From a virus (Duplodnaviria; Caudoviricetes), in IMG/VR virus record IMGVR_UViG_3300027763_000005, positions 1 through 57,560 of that record: a stretch of 57,560 bases of DNA; one strand, written 5' to 3'. The translations under genes were made by a program, and so were the position numbers. The notes under the pieces are model-generated. The model saw nothing but the letters and a program-made list of their open reading frames with translations. It made no database searches and had not been told where the DNA came from. Below, piece by piece: positions 2,503 to 57,529 of the stretch. Position 1 is the stretch's first letter, and every line of letters starts with the position of its first letter.

Positions 2503-3243
2503 ATGGCAAACGGTGAAACCTTTTACGTATACGAGCATTGGCGGCTAGACCGCGATGAATGCTTTTACGTGGGTAAGGGTAGGGCCGGTCGTGCGTATTC
2601 CATGAAAGGCCGGAACCGTCACCATAAGGCTATCGTTGCCAAATTGTCGCGTATTGGCTCGGCACTTGAGGTGAGGATGGTGGCAACTGGGCTGTCAGAG
2701 GCTGATGCGTTTGCGCTAGAGATTGAGCGTATCAGTTTTTGGCGGGAAGCTGGCGTTGACTTAGCAAACGTTACAGATGGCGGGGAGGGTGTTACCGGGT
2801 TGAGGATGTCTGATGCCTCTAAACAAAAAATGTCAGACAAAAAAATAGGCGTCAAGCGAGGCCCGCATTCAGCTGAACATAGGTTAAGAATAGGTTTAGC
2901 CCATCGTGGTAAAAAATTCTCGCCTGAGCACATTGAGAAGCTTTCAAAAGCCAGAAGGGCGAGGGTAACTTCTTCCGAAACAAAAGAAAAAATGTCGCAA
3001 TCAATGACAAAGTTTTATAAAGAAAATCCTGAAGCGCGTCAGGCTGTTTCTGTTGCGCGCAAGGGTATGCGGCATTCAGAAGCTACTAAAAAATTAATGT
3101 CCGAAAAATCAAAAAATAAAATAATATCAAAAGAACAGCGTGCAAAAATCTCTCAAACCCTGACAGGAAAAAAACAATCTAAAGAAACCATTGAAAAAAG
3201 AGTTGCCTCTATAGCCAAAAGAAGATTGGAGTCGGCAAAATGA
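2503..3243 (+). CDS. GIY-YIG homing endonuclease with NUMOD3 repeats
   Basis: FYVYEH...FYVGKG...R, N.TDGGEG, and repeated HSxE(H/T)xxK(I/M)S units. Confidence 0.85.
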   Translation: MANGETFYVYEHWRLDRDECFYVGKGRAGRAYSMKGRNRHHKAIVAKLSRIGSALEVRMVATGLSEADAFALEIERISFWREAGVDLANVTDGGEGVTGLRMSDASKQKMSDKKIGVKRGPHSAEHRLRIGLAHRGKKFSPEHIEKLSKARRARVTSSETKEKMSQSMTKFYKENPEARQAVSVARKGMRHSEATKKLMSEKSKNKIISKEQRAKISQTLTGKKQSKETIEKRVASIAKRRLESAK

Positions 3244-3941: not shown

Positions 3942-4673
3942 ATGGGGTACGCATCCCGTTCGGGCCGAGCCAAAACAGACCCTAAGAACCCGCGCGCTCA
4001 CGCCATATGTGATCGTTGCGCTTTTCGTTACAATCATTCGGACCTCAGTTTCCAATACGACTGGGCCGGTGCGTCTCTGATCAACAAGAAGATGTTGGTC
4101 TGTCAAACTTGTTATGATGAGCCTCAGCAGCAACTTCGTGCCATTGTCGTTCCTGCCGATCCGATGCCGGTGATGAACCCGCGTGTCGAGCCGTATGCGT
4201 GGGATGAGACTGACCGCAGACAAGTTTCTGGCGCGGATATTGTCAGTCCGACAACAGGCATCCCGGTTCCCCGTGGTGATACCCGTGTCACAACTGCTGG
4301 AAGTTCTGCCACAAGCAACAATCGTGTTACCCAGCAGACCGGTGAAGCTCCCGGTGGCAAAAACCAGCTTCCGGGCACCGACCCCAATGCTGTCAGTTAT
4401 CGGGTCATCACCAACGTCTTCAATACCGGCGGCGTGATCTATCTGACCGTGGTAAACACCAATGGGTTCATCACAAACCAAAATGTCATCGTGGGTGGCG
4501 TTTTGGGTGTCACTGCGGCCAACGGCTCATGGGTCATCACGGTTGTGGACCTGACCACAATCTCCCTGAACGGTTCAGTGTTCTCCGGTGCATACACTTC
4601 CGGTGGCTATCTCATCAATGACCCCAGTGTGCCGTATGGGTTCACTGAGATTCCTAAGACTGGAACCCTTTGA
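3942..4673 (+). CDS. Putative virion protein with N-terminal Zn-binding CxxC...CxxC and C-terminal beta domain
   Basis: AICDRCAFRY...LVCQTCYDEPQQQL. C-terminal GV.GVTAANGSWVITVVD. Confidence 0.55.
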   Translation: MGYASRSGRAKTDPKNPRAHAICDRCAFRYNHSDLSFQYDWAGASLINKKMLVCQTCYDEPQQQLRAIVVPADPMPVMNPRVEPYAWDETDRRQVSGADIVSPTTGIPVPRGDTRVTTAGSSATSNNRVTQQTGEAPGGKNQLPGTDPNAVSYRVITNVFNTGGVIYLTVVNTNGFITNQNVIVGGVLGVTAANGSWVITVVDLTTISLNGSVFSGAYTSGGYLINDPSVPYGFTEIPKTGTL

Positions 4674-4737
4674 TAAATGGGGTGAAAGTTTCAGAAATTA
4701 GGGTATAGTACGTTCAAACCGTTGACGAGGTAGAACC

Positions 4738-6975
4738 GTGGCTTCAGTGCAAATCCCGAACCTCCCCGTTGCTACTTCCCTCACCGGAACAGAGCAGCTT
4801 GAGGCCGTCCAGTCTGGAACCTCTGTCCGCGTCACCTCCCAGCAAATTGCGAATCTAGCTCCTGCCGCGCCAACAGGCCCAACCGGCCCCATCGGTGCAA
4901 CAGGCCCAACCGGCCCCATCGGCGTTACCGGCCCCACGGGCGCTCAGGGCGCTCAAGGAAACGTTGGACCTACCGGCCCCAATGGCCCGACTGGCCCCAC
5001 GGGCATTATTGGACCCACTGGCTCTACAGGACCGCAGGGTGCTCAGGGTGTTGCCGGTGCAAATGGCACAAACGGCCCAACAGGTCCGACCGGCTCTGCT
5101 TCATTTACTCCGGGACCGACTGGTCCGACCGGCTCCCAAGGTGGGACCATTGTATATAAGGGGTCTGTTGCTACCGTTGGAGCACTTCCCCCAACAGGAA
5201 ACACGGTTAATGACGCCTACCTAGTTCTGTCAGACAGCCATCTGTACGTTTGGAATGGCACGGCGTGGATTGATAGTGGTGCGTTTACTTCCATTACCGG
5301 TCCTACCGGCCCTGCGGGAACTACCGGTCCAACCGGAGCCGCCGGTCCAACTGGTGCCGCATCGACTGTTGCTGGTCCTACCGGTCCTGCTGGAACTACG
5401 GGTGCAACGGGTGCAGTTGGAGCAACTGGTCCAACAGGTGCGGCCTCAACTGTTGCGGGTCCTACTGGTCCAACGGGTGGAGGCGTTACAACTGTATCGG
5501 TTTCGCCAAATGCTGGCGTCTCCGGTACGGTCGCTAACCCCACAACGACACCCGCCATCAGCCTGACTCTCGGTGTGATTACGCCCACCAGTGTCAACGG
5601 CCTGACCCTAACAGCGGCTGCAACCGGATTTACTGTTGCCGGTGGCACGACTTCGAAGACATTGACCGTCAGCAACACGCTGACATTGGCGGGCACTGAT
5701 GCCTCGACGCTGAATATTGGCACGGGTGGAACGCTTGGGACTTTGGCATTTCAAAGCTCAGTAGCGGGATCGGCCCTTACCGGACCGTCGCTTAATTCTG
5801 GCATTGTCACTTCCTCTCTGACAACCGTTGGAACCATTGGCGCGGGTGTATGGAACGGCACTACCATCGGCATCGCATACGGTGGCACAGGACAATCAAC
5901 CGCCCTCACCCAATACGGCGTTATCTATGGTTCGTCTACGACGGCTATGGGCAATACCGCAGCCGGAACTACGGGTCAGGTTCTCATCGCGACAACGAGC
6001 GCCGCGCCCTCTTGGGGTCAGGTTCCGATTGCCGGTGGCGGCACCGGGCAGACAACCACGGCACTTGGAACCATAGTTGTCGGCGCGAGTGGCAGCACGA
6101 CCACAAACCTCGCCATTGGCACAACTGGACAAGCTTTAACCGTTAGCGGCGGTACTGCCGCATGGGGTCTGGTTCCGATTGCCGGTGGCGGCACCGGCCT
6201 CTCCTCTACGCCCGCAAACGGCGCGCTGGACATTGGCAACGGCACAGGGTTTACCCGCACAACGCTGACGGCGGGCAGTGGCATTACGATTACCAATGGT
6301 GCGGGGTCTATTTCTATTGCGGCAAGCGGCGGCGGGGGTGGTACAGTCAATTCCGGCACATCAGGCCAACTCACCTACTACGCGGCGACCGGCACTGCGG
6401 TGTCGGGCAACCCCAATGCCACGATCAGCACCGCAGCACTGACCCTTGGTGTGCAAAACTCAGTGGCGGGCTCCCTTGTACTTGCCAATCTGGCTGCGGC
6501 GGGACGCTCCACGACCATTCAGTCCAGCGCGTCTGCTTCGGCGGCTTGGACCATGACCTTGCCAGTTTCGGCGGGGACGAGCACCTACGTCCTTTCCACG
6601 GACGGGGCTGGCGTCACAAGCTGGGCTGCTCATGTAACGTCACTGGTTGCGGGCAACGGCATAACTGTTTCCGGGGCGACGGGCGCGGTGACTGTCAGCC
6701 AAGATTTTTACACAGGCACCACGCAAAACAACACAAGTTACCCGATTGGGTCTTATATAGCCGTTATTAACACTAATGTTAGCCGACTGGTTAACGCAAG
6801 CCAGACGATTTGGTCGCCCCCAACTACTGGGGGAGGCGGGTCTTTTGCTGATAGCTCTACAGGCTCTGGTTCTGCAACCTTGACTGGAACTTGGAGAAGT
6901 CGCGGCGCGACCGCCACAGCTAGAACAGTAGGCTGCGACACTTACACTCAATATCTGTTTCAGCGCACAGCGTGA
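4738..6975 (+). CDS. Tail fibre with collagen-like (G-P-T)n repeats
   Basis: Long GPTGPT triplet runs, repeated VPIAGGGTG fibre motifs, C-terminal YPIG...GTWRSRG tip. Confidence 0.85.
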
Positions 6976-26713: not shown

Positions 26714-27193
26714 TTACCATTTAGTGTCTCGGTACGATTTAGCTCTCAATGTTGAGTTTGGAACGTAACAGAGATTGTGATGATGTTGGCAGTATGAGCC
26801 TTTTTCTTTAGTTGCCCCACAGAATAGATACTCGGCTGCACTCCCCTCGTTTATGACGTATCGGCACGACTTACTGGTTAGCCCGTCGTATCCTACATGC
26901 CCTCCCTTGCTTGGGTTCAGACTATCAAAAGCTGCACGGAGCGCAATAGGGTTTTGGTTGAAACGTGAAGTTGTTTTATTTTCACTGTTTTCCTTTGCAA
27001 CAAGCGCCCTGATGGCATCCATGCGAGCATCAAGGATCGGCCCGTTGATGATTTTTTTGGCACGGAGTTTTGATATCCGGCTCATAACAGAGCTTCTGGT
27101 AAATCCAATCTCCGCAGAGATCATAAGGCCGGTGCTGCCCTCACTCCACATTTTTATGATGGTAGCGTCAAAGTCCCTGATATTGATTTTCAT
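26714..27193 (-). CDS. gcrA: GcrA-like cell-cycle regulator
   Basis: N-terminal W.EG.T...I.AEIG.TRSSV.SRI.KL HTH and C-terminal L....CRY......FCG......SYC.HH..LCY. Confidence 0.8.
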   Translation of the reverse strand: MKINIRDFDATIIKMWSEGSTGLMISAEIGFTRSSVMSRISKLRAKKIINGPILDARMDAIRALVAKENSENKTTSRFNQNPIALRAAFDSLNPSKGGHVGYDGLTSKSCRYVINEGSAAEYLFCGATKEKGSYCQHHHNLCYVPNSTLRAKSYRDTKW

Positions 27194-27247
27194 TGGTTTC
27201 TCCTGTCGGGAAGTTGGTGGCGACATGTTAGCCGCCACCATGTTTTT

Positions 27248-40236: not shown

Positions 40237-40920
40237 ATGGCAAACAAGGCAAAGGTTAAGGATTCCGCACCCGTTATTGGCACGGAAAGTCAAGATGAGG
40301 CGTTGAAGCTCGCAATGGGCAAAGGAACCAAAGATGAGCGAAGGGATGCGGCATCGGCTTTCATGCTGATAGAAGAAAGGGCGGCGCGTAAGGCTATACA
40401 GGATAGGGGCAAGGCATTGATGGAAAGGCCAAAGAAGGGAAGGCCCACAACATACAATCCCGACATGGGTGAGGCTATCTGCGAGAGGCTTGCAAGGGGC
40501 GAGAGCCTTGCCAGTGTGTGCGAAGGGAAGGGGATGCCCGGAGTATCGACAGTGTTTCAATGGATAGCAGCAAACCCTGTTTTTGCGGAAGGCTATGCCC
40601 GTGCGCGCGATATCATGGCACATGCCATATTTGATGAGTGCCTCGCGATAGCAGATGAGGCAAAGGATGACATGGACAAAGAGGGAAACCCCAATAACGT
40701 CAATGTCCAAAGGGCAAAGCTTAGGATCGATACTAGGTTCCGCATGGCAGGAAAACTGAATCCAAAGGTGTATTCAGACCGGATGGAGCAACTAGGTGCG
40801 GTTCCTGTTACAATCAATAACAATACAATGAACATTGACGCGCGCTCATTAGACGCGGGGCAGCGTGACAGCTTGCGCCAGTTGCTGCTGTCTGCCCAGA
40901 ATGGGGCGAAAGACTCATAA
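40237..40920 (+). CDS. terS: Terminase small subunit (Sf6 gp1-like)
   Basis: GRPTTY......ICERLA.GESL..VC....MP..STV..W...F...YARAR...KLRIDTR...GKL.PK.Y. Confidence 0.85.
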   Translation: MANKAKVKDSAPVIGTESQDEALKLAMGKGTKDERRDAASAFMLIEERAARKAIQDRGKALMERPKKGRPTTYNPDMGEAICERLARGESLASVCEGKGMPGVSTVFQWIAANPVFAEGYARARDIMAHAIFDECLAIADEAKDDMDKEGNPNNVNVQRAKLRIDTRFRMAGKLNPKVYSDRMEQLGAVPVTINNNTMNIDARSLDAGQRDSLRQLLLSAQNGAKDS

Positions 40921-44241: not shown

Positions 44242-45963
44242 ATGACAACGCTTGATCTGGACGGTCGGTCGATTGATATCGAACGGCAGCTTATGGAGTT
44301 GGACAGGGCCGACTGCGAGGACGACCTGTACACCTTTCTCAAACACGCTTGGCGGTACATTGACTCCTCAGAGTTTACTGAAGGCTGGCCGATTGAGGCC
44401 GTAGCCGAACACCTTCAAGCTGTGGTTGATGGTGACATCCGGCGTCTGATCATCAACATCCCGCCTCGGTGTGCCAAGTCTACCCTGACATCCGTTGCCT
44501 TCCCCGCATGGACATGGGCTCAACCTTGGGCCAGCCCTACCTCTGGTCCCGGTGTTCAATTCCTCCACGCCTCATACGCTCAACAACTTTCTCTTCGTGA
44601 CAGCGTAAAATGCCGTCGCCTGATTGAGAGCCCGTGGTATCAAAAGATGTGGGGTGATCGGTTCAGCCTCACGAGTGATCAAAACACCAAAACTCGGTTT
44701 GACAATGACAAGAATGGCTCGCGGCTTTCAACGTCTGTTGGCTCGGCTCTTACTGGTGAAGGTGGCTCTATCATTGTGGTTGATGACCCCAACGCCGCCC
44801 AAGAAGCCCACTCGGAAGCTACCATTGCGACAACAATCGAATGGTGGGATTCGGCACTTTCAACTCGCCTCAACGACCCAAAGACCGGCGCGTTCGTGGT
44901 CATTCAGCAGCGTCTTTCAGAAGAAGACCTTACCGGGCATATCACTTCAAAAGATCACGGCGAGTGGACCCATCTGTGTCTCCCGATGCGTTATGAATGG
45001 CAACGCCATTCTTATACCTCTATCGGATGGAACGATCCTCGTGGCCTCGCGGACAATGAAGAACCCCTAGTCGAGGTCCTAGAAGACGGCGAGCGCATCC
45101 CCGTTAGCCCGGAAGCTCAAGTTGAACTTGAATCCAGAGAAGGAACCTTGCTCTGGCCGGAACGATTTGGCGAGCGGGAAGTTACAATCCTCGAAAAGCA
45201 ACTGGGTCCGTGGGCCGCTGCCGGTCAACTCCAGCAAAGACCCGAGCCAAAGGGCGGCGGTGTCATCAAACGAGACTGGTGGCAGCCGTGGGATAACAAA
45301 AACTACCCCATCATGGACATGATCATTGCCTGTGTGGACACAGCCTACACCTCAAAGACAGAGAATGACCCGTCTGCCATGACCGTCTGGGGAATTTTTT
45401 CCTCTACAACATCCGTCCAGTCCCCAAATCACGCCGGAGATAGGCACGGGGGTCGCTCTTCCTACACCCGCAACTACACCGAGACAAATCCGCGCGTCAT
45501 GCTGATGCATGCTTGGCAAGGAAGATACGAGCTTCATGATCTGGTCCAGCGCGTCTCTAAGGAATGCCGTGACATGGCAGTCGATGTTCTGCTGATTGAG
45601 AACAAAGCAGCCGGTCACTCGGTCGCCCAAGAGATAAAACGCATGTACGGAGCAGAGAAGTTTTCGGTTCAAATGTTTGATCCCAAGTCTCAGGACAAAT
45701 TGGCACGGTTATACTCCGTCCAGCACTTGTTTGCTGAAGGGTTGGTGTTTGCCCCCAACATGACATGGGCCGAAATGGTCATTACTCAGGTCGGTCAGTT
45801 CCCTAAAGGCAAGCATGACGACTTGGTGGACACCGTTTCTATGGCAATGCGCCACTTCCGTGATACTGGAATCCTTATGCGCGGTGAAGAGTGGGCTGCG
45901 GAGGCTGAAGATGCCGTCCAGTTCCGTGGAAACAACCAATGGGCACCTCTCTATCCAGTCTGA
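44242..45963 (+). CDS. terL: Terminase large subunit
   Basis: LIINIPPRCAKST, LTGEGG.IIVVDDP, QQRL...DL.G, QQRP.P.GG, DTA....NDPSA, IENKAAG, FP.GKHDDLVD. Confidence 0.95.
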   Translation: MTTLDLDGRSIDIERQLMELDRADCEDDLYTFLKHAWRYIDSSEFTEGWPIEAVAEHLQAVVDGDIRRLIINIPPRCAKSTLTSVAFPAWTWAQPWASPTSGPGVQFLHASYAQQLSLRDSVKCRRLIESPWYQKMWGDRFSLTSDQNTKTRFDNDKNGSRLSTSVGSALTGEGGSIIVVDDPNAAQEAHSEATIATTIEWWDSALSTRLNDPKTGAFVVIQQRLSEEDLTGHITSKDHGEWTHLCLPMRYEWQRHSYTSIGWNDPRGLADNEEPLVEVLEDGERIPVSPEAQVELESREGTLLWPERFGEREVTILEKQLGPWAAAGQLQQRPEPKGGGVIKRDWWQPWDNKNYPIMDMIIACVDTAYTSKTENDPSAMTVWGIFSSTTSVQSPNHAGDRHGGRSSYTRNYTETNPRVMLMHAWQGRYELHDLVQRVSKECRDMAVDVLLIENKAAGHSVAQEIKRMYGAEKFSVQMFDPKSQDKLARLYSVQHLFAEGLVFAPNMTWAEMVITQVGQFPKGKHDDLVDTVSMAMRHFRDTGILMRGEEWAAEAEDAVQFRGNNQWAPLYPV

Positions 45964-45988
45964 CAGGTGTGTGGTATCATTTTAAGAT

Positions 45989-46064
45989 GCTATCGTAGCT
46001 CAGAGGTCAGAGCGTCCGCTTTGTAAGCGGAGGGTCGTGGGTTCAAATCCTACCGGTAGCTCCA
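45989..46064 (+). tRNA. tRNA-Thr (anticodon TGT)
   Basis: GCTATCG...TCCGC-TTTGTAA-GCGGA...GGTTCAAATCC...CCA. TATCAT -10 at 45975. Confidence 0.92.
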
Positions 46065-46295: not shown

Positions 46296-48620
46296 ATGTC
46301 AATGACGCCCGGCCTCGTGCCAAATATTCGTCAACCGGCACCTGAACAGGCCGCTATTGGCGCGGCTGATGTCATTGTAGAGGTTGTTGAGGACGGCAAA
46401 GACCTCATTGAGACTGATGAAGACAACAATATCCTTCAAATTGAACATCCTGACGGCTCAATCACCATTTCCTTGGATGGTAAGCCAATTGATGACAAAA
46501 AAGAAGAACGCGATGAGGACAATTGGTATCGAAATCTGGTTGACGACATCGCAGAGTCAAATCTATCCAGCGTTGCTCAAGACCTTCTTCGAGGAATCCG
46601 AGATGACATCCAGAGCCGTCAAGAATGGATTGACGACCGTGCTCAGGGTATCAAACTTCTTGGATTGAAGCTAGAGGTTCCGGGCCTTCAGGGTACTTCT
46701 GACGGTGCTCCCATTGAGGGCATGTCAAAAGTTCGCCATCCGTTGCTGTTGGAAGCCGTCTTGCGCTTCCAAGCTAATGCACGGTCTGAACTGCTGCCCA
46801 CGGACGGGCCGGTTAAGATTCGGAATGATTCTAACAATGCCACATTGGCACAGGATCAACTGGCAAATGCTCTGGAGAATGATTTAAACCATTACTTGAC
46901 TTCTACGGCTACGGAATACTACCCGGACACGGATAGAATGTTGCTGATGTTAGGTTTTGGTGGGACCAGTTTTAAAAAGGTTTACTTTTGTCCGCTTAGA
47001 AACCGTCCGGTGTCTGAGAGTGTGGATGCTGATGACCTGATTGTAGACAACTCGGCCACCGACCTTCGCAATGCCAAGAGAATCACCCACCGGACCTATA
47101 TGCGCCCATCGACCGTCAAGCGGTTGCAAATCCTTGGTGTTTATAAGGATACTAGCCTTTCGGCCCCCAAGCAGATTGATCAGGACTCCCTAAAGCTGGA
47201 GAAGGATGCCCAGCAGGGTATCAACCGCAACAGCATGAACCCGGATGACCGCGACCGGCTCATCTATGAGGTTTATTGCGAGTTGGACCTCATTGGCTTT
47301 GAACATCGCCATAAGGGTAAGCCGTCCGGGTTGGAAATTCCGTATATTGTCACCATTGACGACTCCGCTCAGGAGATTCTGTCAATTGTCAGAAACTATT
47401 CCGAGGATGACAAAGAACTGCCAACTGCCAAACGCAGGTTTGTCAAATACACGTTTGTTCCGGGTCTGGGGTTCTATGACATTGGCCTTTTGCATATTCT
47501 CGGCAACACGACCAACGCAATCACAGCCGCGTGGCGTGAGCTTTTGGATGCCGGGATGTATAACAACTTCCCCGGATTTCTCATGGCAGATACCGGAGCC
47601 CGTCAGAACACAAACATCTTCCGTGTTCCTCCGGGTGGCGGCGCACTGGTCAAGACCGGCGGGATGCCAATTACCCAAGCCATCATGCCCTTGCCATATA
47701 AAGAACCGTCAGGCGCGTTGATGAACCTTGTTACGCAAATGGCGGAAACAGGGATGCGCGTGGGTGGCACCAGTGAAGTCATGGTCATGGAAGGTAAGGC
47801 TGACGCTCCAGTCGGCACCACTCTGGCTATGATCGAGCAAGCCCAGAAGGTTATGAACTCGGTCCACAAGCGCCTTCATGCGTCACAAGCTGAAGAATTT
47901 GAACTGCTGACAGAATGCTTCCGGGACCACCCAGAGAGCTTTTGGCAGAAGCGCCGCCGGTCGGCATACCCTTGGGACGAAAAGACTTTCTTGGATGCCT
48001 TGGACAATTATTACTTTGTCCCACAAGCTGATCCAAACACCTCTTCCCAGTCCCAGCGCCTCATGAAGGTTCTGGCCCTGAAGCAGTTGGTGGCCTCAAA
48101 CCCATCCCTGTACGATCCAATCGCGGTCGATACAGCCGCCCTACAGGCCCTCGGCTGGTCAAACCCGCAACAGTTTATGATTCCCAAGCAAGCTCAGGGT
48201 AATCCGCCGCCGGAACTCATCAAGGCGATGGCTGACATGAAGAACGAACAGATGTCGGCTGAAGCCCGCATGATGGATTCTCAGACACGCGCTGCGGAGT
48301 CTCAAGCTAAAACAGCAATGGACATGGCCCGCCTTCAGGCTGAGTTGGGTCAAGGTGGTGCTGATCCGGCTAGGATGATGGACCTTCAAGTCCGTCAGAA
48401 TGAGATTACGCAGAAAGAGCAGGACACCATGCTCGACGCTATTAACCGCAAGCGTGACCGTGAAAGCCGCGAACGCCTTGCTGCAATGCGAATGGCAGAA
48501 CAGGTTGCTCAGAACCCTCAATCTCTGGGTTTGATTAACCAGATTGTTGATCCTGAAATGCTCAAGCGCCTTGAAAGCAACGAGCCGACTCTGGACGGCA
48601 CCCAGACTGGAGAACTGTAA
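46296..48620 (+). CDS. Portal protein
   Basis: 774 aa downstream of terL. D..SR.EW, HP.L.EA..RFQA.A..EL.P..GPVK, GFY.IGL.H..G, LPYKEPS, APVGTTLA. Confidence 0.85.
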   Translation: MSMTPGLVPNIRQPAPEQAAIGAADVIVEVVEDGKDLIETDEDNNILQIEHPDGSITISLDGKPIDDKKEERDEDNWYRNLVDDIAESNLSSVAQDLLRGIRDDIQSRQEWIDDRAQGIKLLGLKLEVPGLQGTSDGAPIEGMSKVRHPLLLEAVLRFQANARSELLPTDGPVKIRNDSNNATLAQDQLANALENDLNHYLTSTATEYYPDTDRMLLMLGFGGTSFKKVYFCPLRNRPVSESVDADDLIVDNSATDLRNAKRITHRTYMRPSTVKRLQILGVYKDTSLSAPKQIDQDSLKLEKDAQQGINRNSMNPDDRDRLIYEVYCELDLIGFEHRHKGKPSGLEIPYIVTIDDSAQEILSIVRNYSEDDKELPTAKRRFVKYTFVPGLGFYDIGLLHILGNTTNAITAAWRELLDAGMYNNFPGFLMADTGARQNTNIFRVPPGGGALVKTGGMPITQAIMPLPYKEPSGALMNLVTQMAETGMRVGGTSEVMVMEGKADAPVGTTLAMIEQAQKVMNSVHKRLHASQAEEFELLTECFRDHPESFWQKRRRSAYPWDEKTFLDALDNYYFVPQADPNTSSQSQRLMKVLALKQLVASNPSLYDPIAVDTAALQALGWSNPQQFMIPKQAQGNPPPELIKAMADMKNEQMSAEARMMDSQTRAAESQAKTAMDMARLQAELGQGGADPARMMDLQVRQNEITQKEQDTMLDAINRKRDRESRERLAAMRMAEQVAQNPQSLGLINQIVDPEMLKRLESNEPTLDGTQTGEL

Positions 48621-53295: not shown

Positions 53296-53688
53296 ATGCC
53301 GCCAATGATTATGGAACATCCAGTAGACCCGGCTGAAGTCTTGAAGAAGGAGATTGGGGATACCTCCAATGTCGAGGTCTTCAATAACCAGATTTTGGTT
53401 GCGGTTTATATTCGCCCGCAGAAGACCAAGAGTGGAATCTTTCTGACGGAAAAAACAACTGATGAGGACCGGTACCAGTCCAAGGTCGGCCTTGTTATCA
53501 AAAAGGGTCCAGAAGCGTTTAACGACGAATCTGGCATCTGGTTCAGCGACACTGAGATCAAAGAAGGCGAGTGGGTGGTCTTTCGACCGTCTGACGGCTG
53601 GAGCATTACGGTCAATAACGTCCTGTGCCGCATGATTGATGATGTGAACGTGAGGGCTAGGATCGACCAGCCTGATCGCGTTTGGTAA
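53296..53688 (+). CDS. GroES-like co-chaperonin
   Basis: ILV......KTKSGIFL......G.V...GP.A....GEWVVF...DD. Confidence 0.75.
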   Translation: MPPMIMEHPVDPAEVLKKEIGDTSNVEVFNNQILVAVYIRPQKTKSGIFLTEKTTDEDRYQSKVGLVIKKGPEAFNDESGIWFSDTEIKEGEWVVFRPSDGWSITVNNVLCRMIDDVNVRARIDQPDRVW

Positions 53689-54646: not shown

Positions 54647-55288
54647 ATGTCTGAAGCAATGAAAGCCGCCCCCAAGCGTCGTGGCCGTCCGCCCCGCCCA
54701 ATTGTCAAAAAGGCTGAACCAAAGATGGAAGCAGCCGGTGATTTTGACAATGTTGTCATGACAGAAGTTGTCATTGAGGACTCGGTCGCCTTTGAACGTC
54801 CGCCCATGCGTCCGTCTATCCGGGATGAAGACCCGCGTCTGACAGCCGCCAAGCGCGCTGCTGAGATTCGTGGTCACCTTCTGGGTAGCATGGACGACGG
54901 CACGGATGAGTTTGCCGCCCCACGCCCGCCGGATGGCTGGACGTATGAGTGGAAGAGGAAGACCGTCCTTGGGCAGGAAGACCCTGCTTACCAAGTACAT
55001 TTGGCACGGATGGGTTGGGAACCAGTTCCCACTCGCCGTCACCCAGAAATGATGCCGGGACAGGGTAGCCACCCAGCAATTGAGCGTAAGGGTATGACCC
55101 TGATGATGCGCCCGACTGTGATCTCTGAAGAAGCCCGTGACATTGAAAAGCGCCGTGCGCGCGATCAGGTCCGTGCCAAAGAAGCACAATTGAATGCCAC
55201 CCCGGATGGTACGTTGACCCGTGACGATCCGCGTGTTCGCCCGAACATCAAGAAGGGGTTTTCCCCAATTGAAGTCCCAACAGACTGA
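54647..55288 (+). CDS. Conserved head-region hypothetical protein
   Basis: P.PPDGWTYEWKR..VLG......GWEPV......GM.LM. Confidence 0.65.
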   Translation: MSEAMKAAPKRRGRPPRPIVKKAEPKMEAAGDFDNVVMTEVVIEDSVAFERPPMRPSIRDEDPRLTAAKRAAEIRGHLLGSMDDGTDEFAAPRPPDGWTYEWKRKTVLGQEDPAYQVHLARMGWEPVPTRRHPEMMPGQGSHPAIERKGMTLMMRPTVISEEARDIEKRRARDQVRAKEAQLNATPDGTLTRDDPRVRPNIKKGFSPIEVPTD

Positions 55289-55306
55289 TGTCTGTCATCT
55301 TGTCAC

Positions 55307-55341
55307 GAGGAGGGGGTCGCCATGTGCGGCCCTTTTCTTTT
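55307..55341 (+). terminator. Intrinsic terminator
   Basis: GAGGAGGGGGTCGC-CATGT-GCGGCCCTTTTCTTTT. Confidence 0.65.
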
Positions 55342-55361
55342 ATGGGGAAGTGTGTATTATA

Positions 55362-55438
55362 AAAAAATGAACCCGGCAGAGTTTGTCGCTCTGCCGGGCT
55401 CACTGAACCTTCCGCCGCAAACGGAGAGGAGCAGCTTA
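55362..55438 (-). ncRNA. Predicted small antisense RNA (~75 nt)
   Basis: Minus-strand promoter TTGACT(55472-55467)-N16-TATAAT(55450-55445). 10-bp GC hairpin (55372-55398) followed on the minus strand by a T7 run. Confidence 0.55.
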
Positions 55439-55850
55439 GGGACGATTATATATCTCATCCCCCAGCAGTCAATCTCACCAGAACGTCGGAGAACAAATAA
55501 CCTCACCCGGCAATGCCGATTGAGTGAGTTTTTGTTGGTTCGGCGGTGAGCCTTCGGGGATGGTCCGTTATCCGTTGCCCGCGACTGCTGGTGGTCTACA
55601 TCACCAGATAAGTTTCCTGCGGGTTTTTGCCCTCCGACCGTCCTGACGCCGGGTAGGCTAAGGAGCAACACCGATCTACATACCCCCTAGAGTAGTGCCC
55701 TAAAGGTACTAGGGAGCGTTCTGGCCCAACGACAGGTGAGAATATCACCAAGGCATCGGTGCTATACGGGAAACAAGAGCCCTCCCCCGACCGTGACCCC
55801 CGTAAGGGTCCTTCCCAAGCAAGGGAGGGAGGGTAGACGGAGGGCGGAGC
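55365..55850 (+). ncRNA. Candidate large structured ncRNA
   Basis: No credible ORF. At least 9 helices, including long-range 55462-70/55583-91, 55629-36/55838-45 and 55669-75/55755-61. Confidence 0.55.
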
Positions 55851-55908
55851 TTTACATTTATCTAGAAATGGTTTACTTTCCTAAAATAGAGTCCTTCTGG
55901 GGCTTTTA

Positions 55909-55999
55909 ATCGTCCCCCGGCGTGGACGATCAATCTTTTCCGGTTCTAAGTCGCCCCGGTGTGCGATGATGAACTTCCTGAAAAGGAGTTTCCATCATG
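55909..55999 (+). promoter_or_regulatory. 5' UTR hairpins of the capsid operon
   Basis: Two hairpins with CCCGGYGT loops, plus a GAAA-capped stem burying AGGAG and the ATG. Confidence 0.55.
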
Positions 56000-56602
56000 G
56001 CGAACACAAACGCCCCATATGGATTTCGTCAGTATGCTGGTACGGGCTCGTCCCCTACCTACGAACAGGTGGCTGTTGCCATTGCGTATGATGCTACGGC
56101 TCTCTTCTTTGGTGACCCCGTTGTCCCGACCACCTCTGGCACGGTTGCTAAGGGTGACATTGCGGGCGCTCCCACGGTTCAGATCGCTGGCATCTTTCAG
56201 GGATGCAAGTACCTCTCGGTGTCGCAGAAGCGCACTGTTTGGTCGAACTATTGGCCCGGTTCTGATGTCGCTTCCGGCAATGTTGTCGAGGGCTACATCA
56301 TCAATGACCCGAATGCCAAGTTTGTGGCTCAGATCGGTGGTTCTTCTTCAGTCGGCGCGGTTGCCGGTGATGTGAATGCCAACGTGCAGTTTGCTTATGG
56401 CACGGGTAACACCGCCAACGGCATCTCTGGTGCTTACGTTGACATCTCTGTCACCCCGACCACAACCAACACGCTTCCCTTCCGTATTGTCAGCCTTGTC
56501 ACGCAACCTCCCGGTGCCCCCGGTACGGAAGCTGGCGCTTACAACTACGTCGTGGTCGCGTTTAACAACGTCTCCACCAAACAACTTCTTTCGGTGGGCT
56601 AA
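55997..56602 (+). CDS. Capsid-associated (cement/decoration-type) protein
   Basis: MAN.NAP.GF......F.GDPV.....GIF.GC.Y.......DP...F..Q. Immediately upstream of the capsid gene. Confidence 0.7.
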   Translation: MANTNAPYGFRQYAGTGSSPTYEQVAVAIAYDATALFFGDPVVPTTSGTVAKGDIAGAPTVQIAGIFQGCKYLSVSQKRTVWSNYWPGSDVASGNVVEGYIINDPNAKFVAQIGGSSSVGAVAGDVNANVQFAYGTGNTANGISGAYVDISVTPTTTNTLPFRIVSLVTQPPGAPGTEAGAYNYVVVAFNNVSTKQLLSVG

Positions 56603-56617
56603 GAGGAGTCTTGAACT

Positions 56618-57529
56618 ATGGCTGTTAACCTTTCTGCCATTAAGGACCTTCTCCTCCCCGGCCTCCGTGGGGTTGAAGGCAAGTACGAGCAAATTCCGGC
56701 ACAGTATGACAAGATTTTCACGAAGCATGACTCGAAAATGGCGCTTGAGCGCACAGCCGAGATGCGTTTCTTGGGTCTTGCCCAACTGAAGACTGAAGGC
56801 GGTCAGACCGCTTTCGACAACAGTGCTGGCGAACGCTTCATCTATAACCAAGAGCACACTGAAATTGCTCTGGGTTACGCAATCACCCGCAAGGCGATTG
56901 ATGACAACCTCTACAAGACTCAGTTCGCTCCGTCGAACCTCGGCCTGATCGAATCTTTCGGCCAGACCAAGGAAATCTACGGTGCCAATATCCTCAACAC
57001 TGCGACGACGTACAACTCGTCCATCGGTGGTGACGGTAAGGCTCTTTGCGCGACTGACCATCCTATCGATGGTGGCACGGTCTCAAATCGTCCGGCGACA
57101 GATGTTGATCTCAATGAGTCAACACTACTCAACGCTATGATTTCGATTCGTACCAACTTCAAGGATCAGGCTGGCCTCAAGGTGTTTGCGCGCGGTCGCA
57201 AGCTCGTTGTCCCGCCGCAGCTTGAACCGGTTGCCATTCGTCTGACAAAGACTGAACTGCGTCCGGGCACTGCCGATAACGATGTCAACGCGATCATGTC
57301 CACTGCTGGCGGTCTGCCAGAAGGATATCTGGTCAATGACTTCCTGACATCGGCTCGTGCTTGGTTCCTCCTGACAAACATTGATGGTTTGTCGTACATG
57401 GAGCGGGTTAAGTTTGAAAGCGATATGCAAGTCGACTTCGTAACCGATAACCTTTTAGTTAAAGGATACGAGCGCTACTCGTTCGGCTATTATAACTTCC
57501 GTTCTATCTTCGGGTCGTTCCCAACCTGA
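56618..57529 (+). CDS. Major capsid protein (Mu gpT-like, HK97 fold)
   Basis: LLPGL, K.EG...FD, ALGYAITR.AIDDNLY, GDG.AL....HP, L.VPPQL, T.DND.NA, ERYSFG. Confidence 0.9.
   Translation: MAVNLSAIKDLLLPGLRGVEGKYEQIPAQYDKIFTKHDSKMALERTAEMRFLGLAQLKTEGGQTAFDNSAGERFIYNQEHTEIALGYAITRKAIDDNLYKTQFAPSNLGLIESFGQTKEIYGANILNTATTYNSSIGGDGKALCATDHPIDGGTVSNRPATDVDLNESTLLNAMISIRTNFKDQAGLKVFARGRKLVVPPQLEPVAIRLTKTELRPGTADNDVNAIMSTAGGLPEGYLVNDFLTSARAWFLLTNIDGLSYMERVKFESDMQVDFVTDNLLVKGYERYSFGYYNFRSIFGSFPT

Follow-up and report, generated by a model that had tools for sequence, protein, structure and literature searches.

To our knowledge, large structured RNAs that have no protein partner and no known role are rare, and only a handful of classes has been described. 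The ColE1 plasmid makes a long structured RNA whose first 70-110 nucleotides (nt) are covered by a strongly promoted stem-loop antisense RNA and which has a G-rich segment near its 3′ end, and phages make cis-antisense small RNAs (sRNAs) such as sar of P22 and OOP of lambda. According to passages of PMC12286853, the large phage RNAs GOLLD and ROOL have no known function and are often located close to islands of transfer RNA (tRNA) genes, GOLLD consists of a conserved 3′ region and a variable 5′ region, and both RNAs have recently been shown to build RNA cages. Passages of a 2023 study by Fremin et al. (PMC10690425) report candidate structured RNAs of IMG/VR with lengths of 29-151 nt. Here, we describe an element at positions 55362-55854 of the IMG/VR virus record IMGVR_UViG_3300027763_000005 (Caudoviricetes), of which the whole stretch of 57,560 nt was analysed and is called the window below; it is a complete 57.5-kb phage record with terminal repeats. 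On balance, the element is best read as a self-contained cassette with an accessory RNA gene, in the manner of GOLLD and ROOL; it would encode an RNA of ~490 nt on the + strand and an antisense sRNA of ~78 nt that gates its accumulation. The element belongs to a conserved and covarying family, its body lies on the + strand, and it is an insert in different slots, which hold tRNA genes in sister phages.

Like GOLLD and ROOL, the element is a protein-less phage RNA of hundreds of nucleotides with an elaborate covarying structure at sites of tRNA genes. The location in tRNA slots together with the covariation makes this a likeness of kind and not of membership. No GOLLD or ROOL model matches the window or its relatives L098 and L095 at expectation values (E) up to 10, the element is shorter than these RNAs (~490 nt) and has its own predicted antisense sRNA gene, and it comes from freshwater phage contigs only, with no match to bacterial genomes by exact patterns. 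As described for GOLLD in passages of PMC12286853, the 3′ region of the element RNA is conserved and the 5′ region is variable. An invariant palindromic GGCC at 55724-55727, in the loop of hairpin 55717-55731, recalls the kissing loops of GOLLD and ROOL, as a lead only.

An earlier note on this DNA, made from the sequence alone, had seen a layout like that of RNA I and RNA II of ColE1, and this likeness holds in lengths and arrangement, as a matter of layout only: the element has a predicted antisense overlap at its 5′ end and a G-rich 3′ segment. Unlike ColE1, it is not kept in related replicons, it occupies three slots, its G-rich strand is paired inside the RNA, and it has no sequence or model match to ColE1 and two sRNA hairpins instead of three. 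The sRNA resembles P22 sar, lambda OOP and ctRNA_pGA1 in its length of ~70-80 nt, its terminator hairpin and a promoter inside the opposed longer transcript, and it differs from them in that its target would be a non-coding RNA and not the messenger RNA of a regulator or Rep protein. The candidates in the passages of PMC10690425 share with the element their source in IMG/VR and covariation in phage intergenic regions, but are far shorter than ~490 nt.

The element would be a further class of large RNA, and one small enough for structural work. The same phage backbone exists with the slot empty, with a tRNA gene or with the RNA element, which offers a natural contrast, and an own antisense regulator would give an experimental handle on the role of such RNAs in phages. 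The "morons" of phage late operons can, on this evidence, be RNA genes.

A family of elements in freshwater phages

The family profile matches the window at 55362-55854 only (E 1.6e-124) and has no match in loci L001 and L003-L082. An exact 22-mer from the G-rich 3′ end retrieved eight IMG/VR contigs, and three more IMG/VR patterns, from the 5′ end, the core and the core plus tail, retrieved the same contigs and no others (8, 7 and 8, respectively). A metagenome scan gave six matches, whose element sequences are identical to known ones. Two exact-pattern scans of 185,579 bacterial and archaeal genomes gave no match, which does not show absence because diverged copies would escape. The family is known only from nine freshwater phage contigs. 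After removal of exact duplicates, and of one copy set apart from L095 by unread N positions and a handful of other bases, the family alignment comprises seven distinct sequences in three subtypes, and a full-length alignment was obtained for all members. The element is 83% identical to that of both syntenic relatives, compared with 73% for the 2.6-2.8-kb locus including the element.

Searches of the whole window against Rfam at curated cut-offs return four tRNAs only, and searches of the window, L098 and L095 relaxed to E 10 return no match that reaches its cut-off. Among phage GenBank records, similarity is confined to the leader downstream of the element, in one record, and a similarity search of plasmids gave no match. 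The 3′ motif was not found in the papers that were searched, keyword searches gave no description of the family, and the motif is absent from the six supplementary files of PMC10690425 that the search covered; files 1, 2 and 4 of that study, which may contain the alignments, lie outside these six and may list fragments of the RNA. The element is, as far as its sequence tells, an uncatalogued and rare RNA family of freshwater phages. The earlier note had called it an undescribed structured non-coding RNA and had proposed a comparison with Rfam and a collection of homologues; both have now been carried out and agree with that claim, since no Rfam family is reached at cut-off and the seven distinct sequences form a conserved family with compensatory change.

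Predicted structure of the large RNA

Conservation with compensatory change among homologues is the strongest evidence for the predicted RNA. RNAalifold places 103 pairs in 21 helices on the seven sequences. Standard pairs fill 94.5% of the cells, compared with 82.6% in shuffled alignments (reached in 0 of 500) and 33-46% when the partners are slid, and 44 pairs are changed on both sides, compared with a shuffled mean of 28.9 (again 0 of 500) and 3-14 with slid partners. Compensatory change is seen in 15 of the 21 helices. In the helix that closes the core, five of seven pairs are changed on both sides, and CACCGAT/ATCGGTG is replaced by CACAGGT/ACCTGTG in one subtype and by CGCAGGT/ACCTGCG in a second one. 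As to the folding energy of the single sequence, a 536-nt stretch around the element folds better than its shuffles on both strands (z -2.99 on +, z -3.34 on -), as the earlier note had expected. The predicted parts of the large RNA are as follows.

55362-55854, + strand: conserved element, large structured RNA of ~490 nt (family profile, alignment, covariation)
55441-55459, + strand: hairpin M1, with the complement of the sRNA -10 box in its loop (helix 4; both partners change in all 5 pairs, and 82.4% of the cells are paired)
55460-55612, + strand: variable middle domain with a long arm, its conserved tip CCCGGCAATGCCGATTGAG (55506-55524) and hairpin 55588-55607 (single-sequence folds)
55613-55773, + strand: conserved 3′ core with closing helix 55613-55619/55767-55773 (covariation helices 9-17)
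55669-55677/55752-55761, + strand: closing helix of a four-way junction with hairpins 55685-55714, 55717-55731 and 55735-55749
55629-55643, + strand: near-invariant C-rich block GCCCTCCGACCGTCC, unpaired in the consensus fold (conservation; alternative partner of the G-rich 3′ block)
55780-55849, + strand: 3′ tail helix, in which pyrimidine-rich 55780-55800 pairs with the invariant G-rich GGGAGGGAGGGTAGACGGAGGG(C/A)GGAG at 55823-55849 (helices 18-21)

The 3′ core is the best-supported part of the predicted structure. Its closing helix encloses two hairpins and the four-way junction, the strands of which are nearly invariant; 89-100% of the cells in helices 9-17 are paired, and eight of these nine helices have changes on both sides. 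In the middle domain, the arm and the tip recur in single-sequence folds of all seven members, and the last hairpin recurs in single-sequence folds too; the tip block is conserved, and helix 8 of the alignment count lies in this domain. The G-rich 3′ end, already singled out in the earlier note, is the most conserved block of the element, although this is biased by the bait: the rows in which 55823-55849 is invariant were first retrieved with a 22-mer from this very block. In the tail, the only variation at seven of the 18 pairs is an exchange of C and U facing a G, as expected of a helix within the RNA itself. Every member could form two candidate pseudoknots, TCTAC with GTAGA and the C-rich with the G-rich block, and in each of them the two partner strands are invariant.

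The features listed in the earlier note are all present in the window where it had placed them. Among homologues, the helices that it proposed were kept in part. The hairpin 55372-55381/55389-55398, the helices CACCGAT/ATCGGTG, TAGTGCC/GGTACTA, GGTGA/TCACC and CTGGTG/CACCAG, and the long arm (tip 55506-55524) recur, as judged by covariation in the RNAalifold model or by alignment and folds read by eye; CTGGTG/CACCAG takes another register in the closest relatives. Three others are present in the window but not conserved. The helix 55462-55470/55583-55591 has nine of nine pairs in the window, six of nine in the two closest relatives and one to three of nine elsewhere, where the alignment is unsure, and CATCCCC/GGGGATG has seven of seven in the window, six of seven in the two closest relatives and none to four of seven elsewhere. 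The helix 55629-55636/55838-55845 has eight of eight pairs in the window and five to six of eight, uncompensated, in the closest relatives. It competes for the G residues of the tail helix. Five to eight of its eight pairs can form in all seven members, and it may be an alternative fold.

Coding strand and the predicted antisense sRNA

The RNAalifold energy is nearly equal on the two strands, and the strand was therefore chosen by counting G-U and A-C combinations among the paired cells. Their ratio is 24:3 in the core, 25:2 in the tail and 19:4 in the middle domain, indicating that the body of the RNA is read on the + strand. The opposite holds for the two 5′ hairpins (55369-55434), which have no G-U and five A-C. 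In agreement with this, the first hairpin of L093 has three A-C mismatches on the + strand that are G-U pairs on the - strand (alignment read by eye), and the - strand folds of the 5′ hairpins are better by 5.0, 6.7 and 12.3 kcal/mol in three members of the window type. These hairpins coincide with the sRNA that is predicted on the - strand.

55360-55438, - strand: predicted antisense sRNA of ~78 nt, with hairpin A (55434-55403), terminator hairpin (55404-55366) and U7 tail
55445-55472, - strand: near-consensus sigma-70 promoter of the sRNA, TTGACT-16-TATAAT (11 of 12 positions; signal scan)
55351-55360, + strand: candidate -10 box of the large RNA, TGTGTATTAT (weak, no good -35; start near 55367)

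An 81-nt RNA of the - strand folds with -40.6 kcal/mol (z -5.19, equalled by none of 200 shuffles), and the terminator at 55404-55366 has 16 pairs followed by a T-run in the signal scan. The promoter of the sRNA is kept in L096 at the same place as TTGACG-16-TATAAT (11 of 12) and also in L093 (alignment read by eye), and a TTGAnn -35 box was seen by eye at the equivalent place in all seven sequences, the sites being weaker in the other subtypes. A scan finds one promoter-like site per 2 kb, and shuffled sequence has a mean of 0.9, so that the promoter alone proves little. Since the promoter is kept in relatives, TTGAnn is present in 7/7 sequences and a U7 tail follows the hairpin, an antisense sRNA of ~78 nt is likely, at least in the window type. 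The earlier note had placed an antisense RNA of ~75 nt over the 5′ end, and the prediction now made agrees well with it. The stretch of the sRNA has its best Rfam score with ctRNA_pGA1 (RF00236; 30.4 bits, E 6e-4). Membership in that family was rejected because the cut-off is 45 bits and neither L098 nor L095 has a match, and a match to BjrC80 (28.7 bits against a cut-off of 80), which spans the sRNA promoter, was set aside.

The predicted sRNA is fully complementary to the first ~70 nt of the large RNA. Hairpin M1 covaries with G-U pairs on the + strand and overlaps the sRNA promoter, which requires the large RNA to start further left, and the two RNAs would overlap along the whole sRNA. The earlier note had judged the sense promoter to be weakly supported, and we agree, there being no good -35 in the window. 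Every subtype has a promoter-like site immediately before the first hairpin (TTGATA-17-TAAAGT in L092 by the scan, the others by eye). The motif TGTG-N0-2-TATNAT has only two sites in the window, the other of which lies 8 nt upstream of tRNA-Thr; TGTGGTATCAT precedes tRNA-Thr and is found elsewhere in the genome only before the element.

The element as an insert between a terminator and a promoter

The element lies in a 708-nt gap (55289-55996) between a 213-amino-acid (aa) gene and a 201-aa gene that precedes the major capsid gene, in keeping with the ~700-bp gap that the earlier note had seen in a packed operon. The features that flank the element are as follows.

55307-55347, + strand: intrinsic terminator of the upstream head-assembly genes, hairpin plus TTTTCTTTT (fold; relatives)
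55851-55879, + strand: promoter of the capsid operon, TTTACA-17-TACTTT (aligns with element-free relatives; below the scan threshold; outside the element)
55909-55998, + strand: conserved leader of the 201-aa gene (relatives; fold)

The upstream terminator, which the earlier note had regarded as an insulator, folds with -24.4 kcal/mol (z -3.45, equalled by none of 200 shuffles), is also called in relative L096 and can be aligned with those of element-free relatives. In IMG/VR, at least 588 proteins are related to the 201-aa protein. The analysis used the best 80 loci, and in 78 of them, including one GenBank phage (MW202675), it was possible to locate both flanking genes. The gap in the 78 relatives ranges from 96 to 1136 nt and is no longer than 231 nt in 52 of them, and by both similarity and family profile the element is absent from the capsid locus in 78/78. 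Similarity to the leader (window 55901-55993) is found in 42 loci, none of which matches further left. In element-free relatives, the terminator runs straight into a TTTAC(A/T/G)-17/18-TAnnnT promoter, which is followed by the conserved leader. Since the window keeps that terminator to the left of the element and that promoter and leader to its right, the element is an insert. The AT-rich tract that the earlier note had placed after the G-rich end is present, but it is the capsid promoter common to element-free relatives and not a part of the RNA.

The longer gaps hold unrelated cargo, with tRNA-Met in five of 26; only tRNAs match Rfam there and none of the cargo is like the element. The five relatives with tRNA-Met in the slot of the window are L001 (MW202675.1, locus 4270-5407), L019, L021, L029 and L030. 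In the same five, several hundred other bases lie beside tRNA-Met, and these are annotated in the GenBank record as small hypothetical proteins.

The element occupies three slots, and in all three it is oriented with the late genes. Slot 1 (window type) lies before the capsid genes, slot 2 (L098, L097 and L094 type) ahead of a 133- or 174-aa gene that is itself followed by the small terminase gene, and slot 3 (L095 type) between the large terminase gene and a 71-aa gene plus portal gene. The terminase and portal of L095 are 71% and 76% identical, respectively, to those of the window, and where L095 has the element (slot at 1582-2170), the window has tRNA-Thr (slot at 45967-46064) before a homologous small open reading frame (ORF), indicating that the element and tRNA genes are alternative cargo. 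A promoter-like site of the next gene follows the element directly in the L098 and L092 types (scan) and in L095 (by eye).

The leader forms two hairpins, 55909-55930 and 55950-55967, which have the same 8-nt loop CCCGGYGT and stems that covary while the loops are fixed. In a third hairpin (55966-55998), ATGATG (55967-55972) pairs with CATCAT (55992-55997) over the ribosome-binding site and start codon. Rfam has no match to the leader, which looks like a binding site of a dimeric regulator combined with a putative translational lock. Contigs from four metatranscriptome sets cover positions from 55852 onward (capsid genes) and none lies on 55362-55851, which says nothing either way on the element. 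One of them (run X22, 151 nt, no mismatch) maps to 55852-56002 and starts upstream of the predicted capsid -10 box, just where the element ends; it could reflect read-through from the element or DNA in the library, and its end proves no RNA end.

The ORFs of the gap have translations that look like noise, and the three that were tested have no PHROGs or Pfam match. No ORF of at least 30 aa keeps constant limits across the seven members; shorter ones were inspected by eye only. A 104-aa ORF on the - strand finds a syntenic relative as its sole match and is 62-68 aa long in the closest relatives, and an ORF with an ATG at 55367 meets a stop after five codons in L096 (alignment read by eye). A type I toxin-antitoxin system is not supported, since the long RNA has no conserved small ORF of at least 30 aa in the seven members.

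Proposed mechanism and alternative explanations

These observations lead to a plausible scheme for the cassette. Its entry into the phage would have taken place downstream of the head-assembly terminator and upstream of the capsid promoter. The last ~410 nt of the + strand RNA would fold into the middle arm, the core around the four-way junction and the tail helix that uses the G-rich strand, and the sRNA would be transcribed on the - strand from a host-type promoter inside the cassette and end at the terminator on the left edge of the cassette. The large RNA would be stable and trans-acting, of the same kind as GOLLD and ROOL, and the sRNA, together with convergent transcription, would limit or time its accumulation, which could happen through duplex formation and through collision of the convergent transcription, in which a strong promoter faces a weak one. 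All three slots lie in the packaging and head module, which is a hint on the target of the large RNA, no more. In a bolder and rather improbable version, the RNA would be a new class of ornate phage RNA, a particle or scaffold that may self-associate via the GGCC loop, like GOLLD and ROOL, and may act in packaging or head assembly with an antisense timer: sRNA made by the host polymerase from the first minutes would hold the RNA down until late transcription overruns it. If true, an accessory module made of RNA alone, and passed between phages as tRNA genes are, would be phage cargo without a described precedent.

Several points weigh against the cassette with its two RNAs. Both RNAs are predicted from sequence and neither has been seen as a transcript, the + strand promoter of the window is weak, the sRNA -10 box lacks the final T in three of the four sequences outside the window type (by eye), and in the other four members the 5′ hairpins fold about equally on both strands. 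Seven distinct sequences in three clades allow few independent compensatory events, the structure was predicted and counted on the same alignment, the shuffle control yields no probability, and the middle domain (55460-55612) is poorly aligned between subtypes. The invariance of the G-rich block is partly a bait effect, since three of the five scans (viral and metagenome) used it. Finally, the common orientation with the late genes in 3/3 slots would also fit a cis role or expression by read-through.

A cis role is one such alternative: the RNA would act on late transcription or translation, by processive antitermination or ribosome recruitment, and the sRNA would keep the RNA off early. The element lies co-oriented and directly upstream of major structural genes in every slot, its copy in the L098 type lacks a clear terminator, and its G-rich block holds several GGAGG motifs. 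The downstream genes have their own promoter-like sites after the element, however, in 52/78 relatives the same capsid operon does without the element, behind a gap of ≤231 nt, sister phages have tRNA genes in the same slots, and known antiterminator RNAs need far less than 490 nt with conserved junctions. We therefore regard a cis role as unlikely but worth keeping in mind. It is also conceivable, though less so, that only the + strand RNA is real, the left hairpin being a two-way terminator that insulates the cassette and the - promoter a chance occurrence or a remnant. The frequency of promoter-like sites, which matches that of shuffled sequence, the poor -10 boxes outside the window type and the nearly equal folding of the two strands there would suit this explanation. 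It is harder to reconcile with the 11/12 promoter kept in L096 and, by eye, in L093, with TTGAnn in every sequence, with the A-C mismatches of the L093 hairpin that become G-U on the - strand, and with a promoter-terminator spacing that gives a compact two-hairpin sRNA with a U7 tail and z -5.19.

The patchy distribution over three slots in related phages may also bring to mind a selfish mobile RNA, ribozyme-based or intron-derived and without an ORF, whose spread free-standing homing endonucleases of these phages may help. Homing-endonuclease-like genes are indeed present in the late region (195-947 and 2503-3243), and empty sites have a terminator arm plus promoter, GCGGCCCTTTAC, to which the right junction GCGGAGCTTTAC is similar, as would suit recombination. 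This explanation is nevertheless highly improbable: in three members, no group I or group II intron or ribozyme model matches at E up to 10, no gene is interrupted by the element, and no target duplication or terminal repeats were seen, although no systematic search for them was made. A group I or group II intron was rejected as a candidate because the element is flanked by a terminator and by a promoter plus leader that are all complete, and no model matches to E 10. The intron models of Rfam are not very sensitive and may miss a remote relation to introns.

The earlier note had offered two functions, an RNA-primed origin and an attenuator of capsid expression, and the comparison with relatives supports neither. 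In the former, of which we think very little, a ColE1-like pre-primer would form an R-loop via its G-rich end at the AT-rich tract and the sRNA would set the copy number. It would be in keeping with an RNA of ~490 nt whose 5′ end is fully overlapped by an sRNA, with the 3′ end of the sRNA at the start of the large RNA, with the G-rich 3′ end, and with AT-rich DNA after that end in the members of the window type. An origin should be kept in relatives, however, and the element is absent from this locus in all 78 and sits in three different slots. Moreover, the AT-rich tract is an ordinary capsid promoter and the corresponding DNA of the L098 type is not AT-rich, the C/U-only variation of the tail fits an RNA-RNA helix that includes the G-rich strand, genes for a primase and a helicase are present in the phage itself, no plasmid replication RNA of Rfam reaches its cut-off, and GC skew, which is uninformative here, shows nothing at the element locus. 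An attenuator should lie within its own transcription unit, but the element is upstream of an intact capsid promoter plus leader, and elsewhere it precedes unrelated genes with promoter-like sites of their own. An origin or attenuator function may still exist as a side effect of read-through.

Gene order and neighbouring genes

The preferred reading, an accessory RNA gene cassette with an antisense sRNA, places the element within the following late region of the window.

40237-40920: small terminase gene, followed by tRNA genes
44242-45963: large terminase gene
45989-46064: tRNA-Thr gene, between the large terminase and portal genes
46296-48620: portal gene, followed by several head genes, one of them GroES-like
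54647-55288: 213-aa gene, left neighbour of the gap
55289-55996: gap of 708 nt between the 213-aa and 201-aa genes
55997-56602: 201-aa gene, right neighbour of the gap
56618-57529: major capsid gene

The homing-endonuclease-like genes of the late region (HNH/endonuclease VII; phrog_314) lie just after the capsid gene, and the two may explain a brisk exchange of intergenic cargo among phages of this group. The GroES-like co-chaperonin gene lies inside the head module at 53296-53688 and is annotated in MW202675 too. In the contig of L094 (G001), a 341-aa ORF at 15707-16669 matches the 201-aa query twice, which is a tandem domain duplication. A gene for a GcrA-like cell-cycle regulator is found on the - strand at 26714-27241 and, together with capsid relatives in phages of Pelagibacter, Roseobacter and Caulobacter, points to a likely alphaproteobacterial host.

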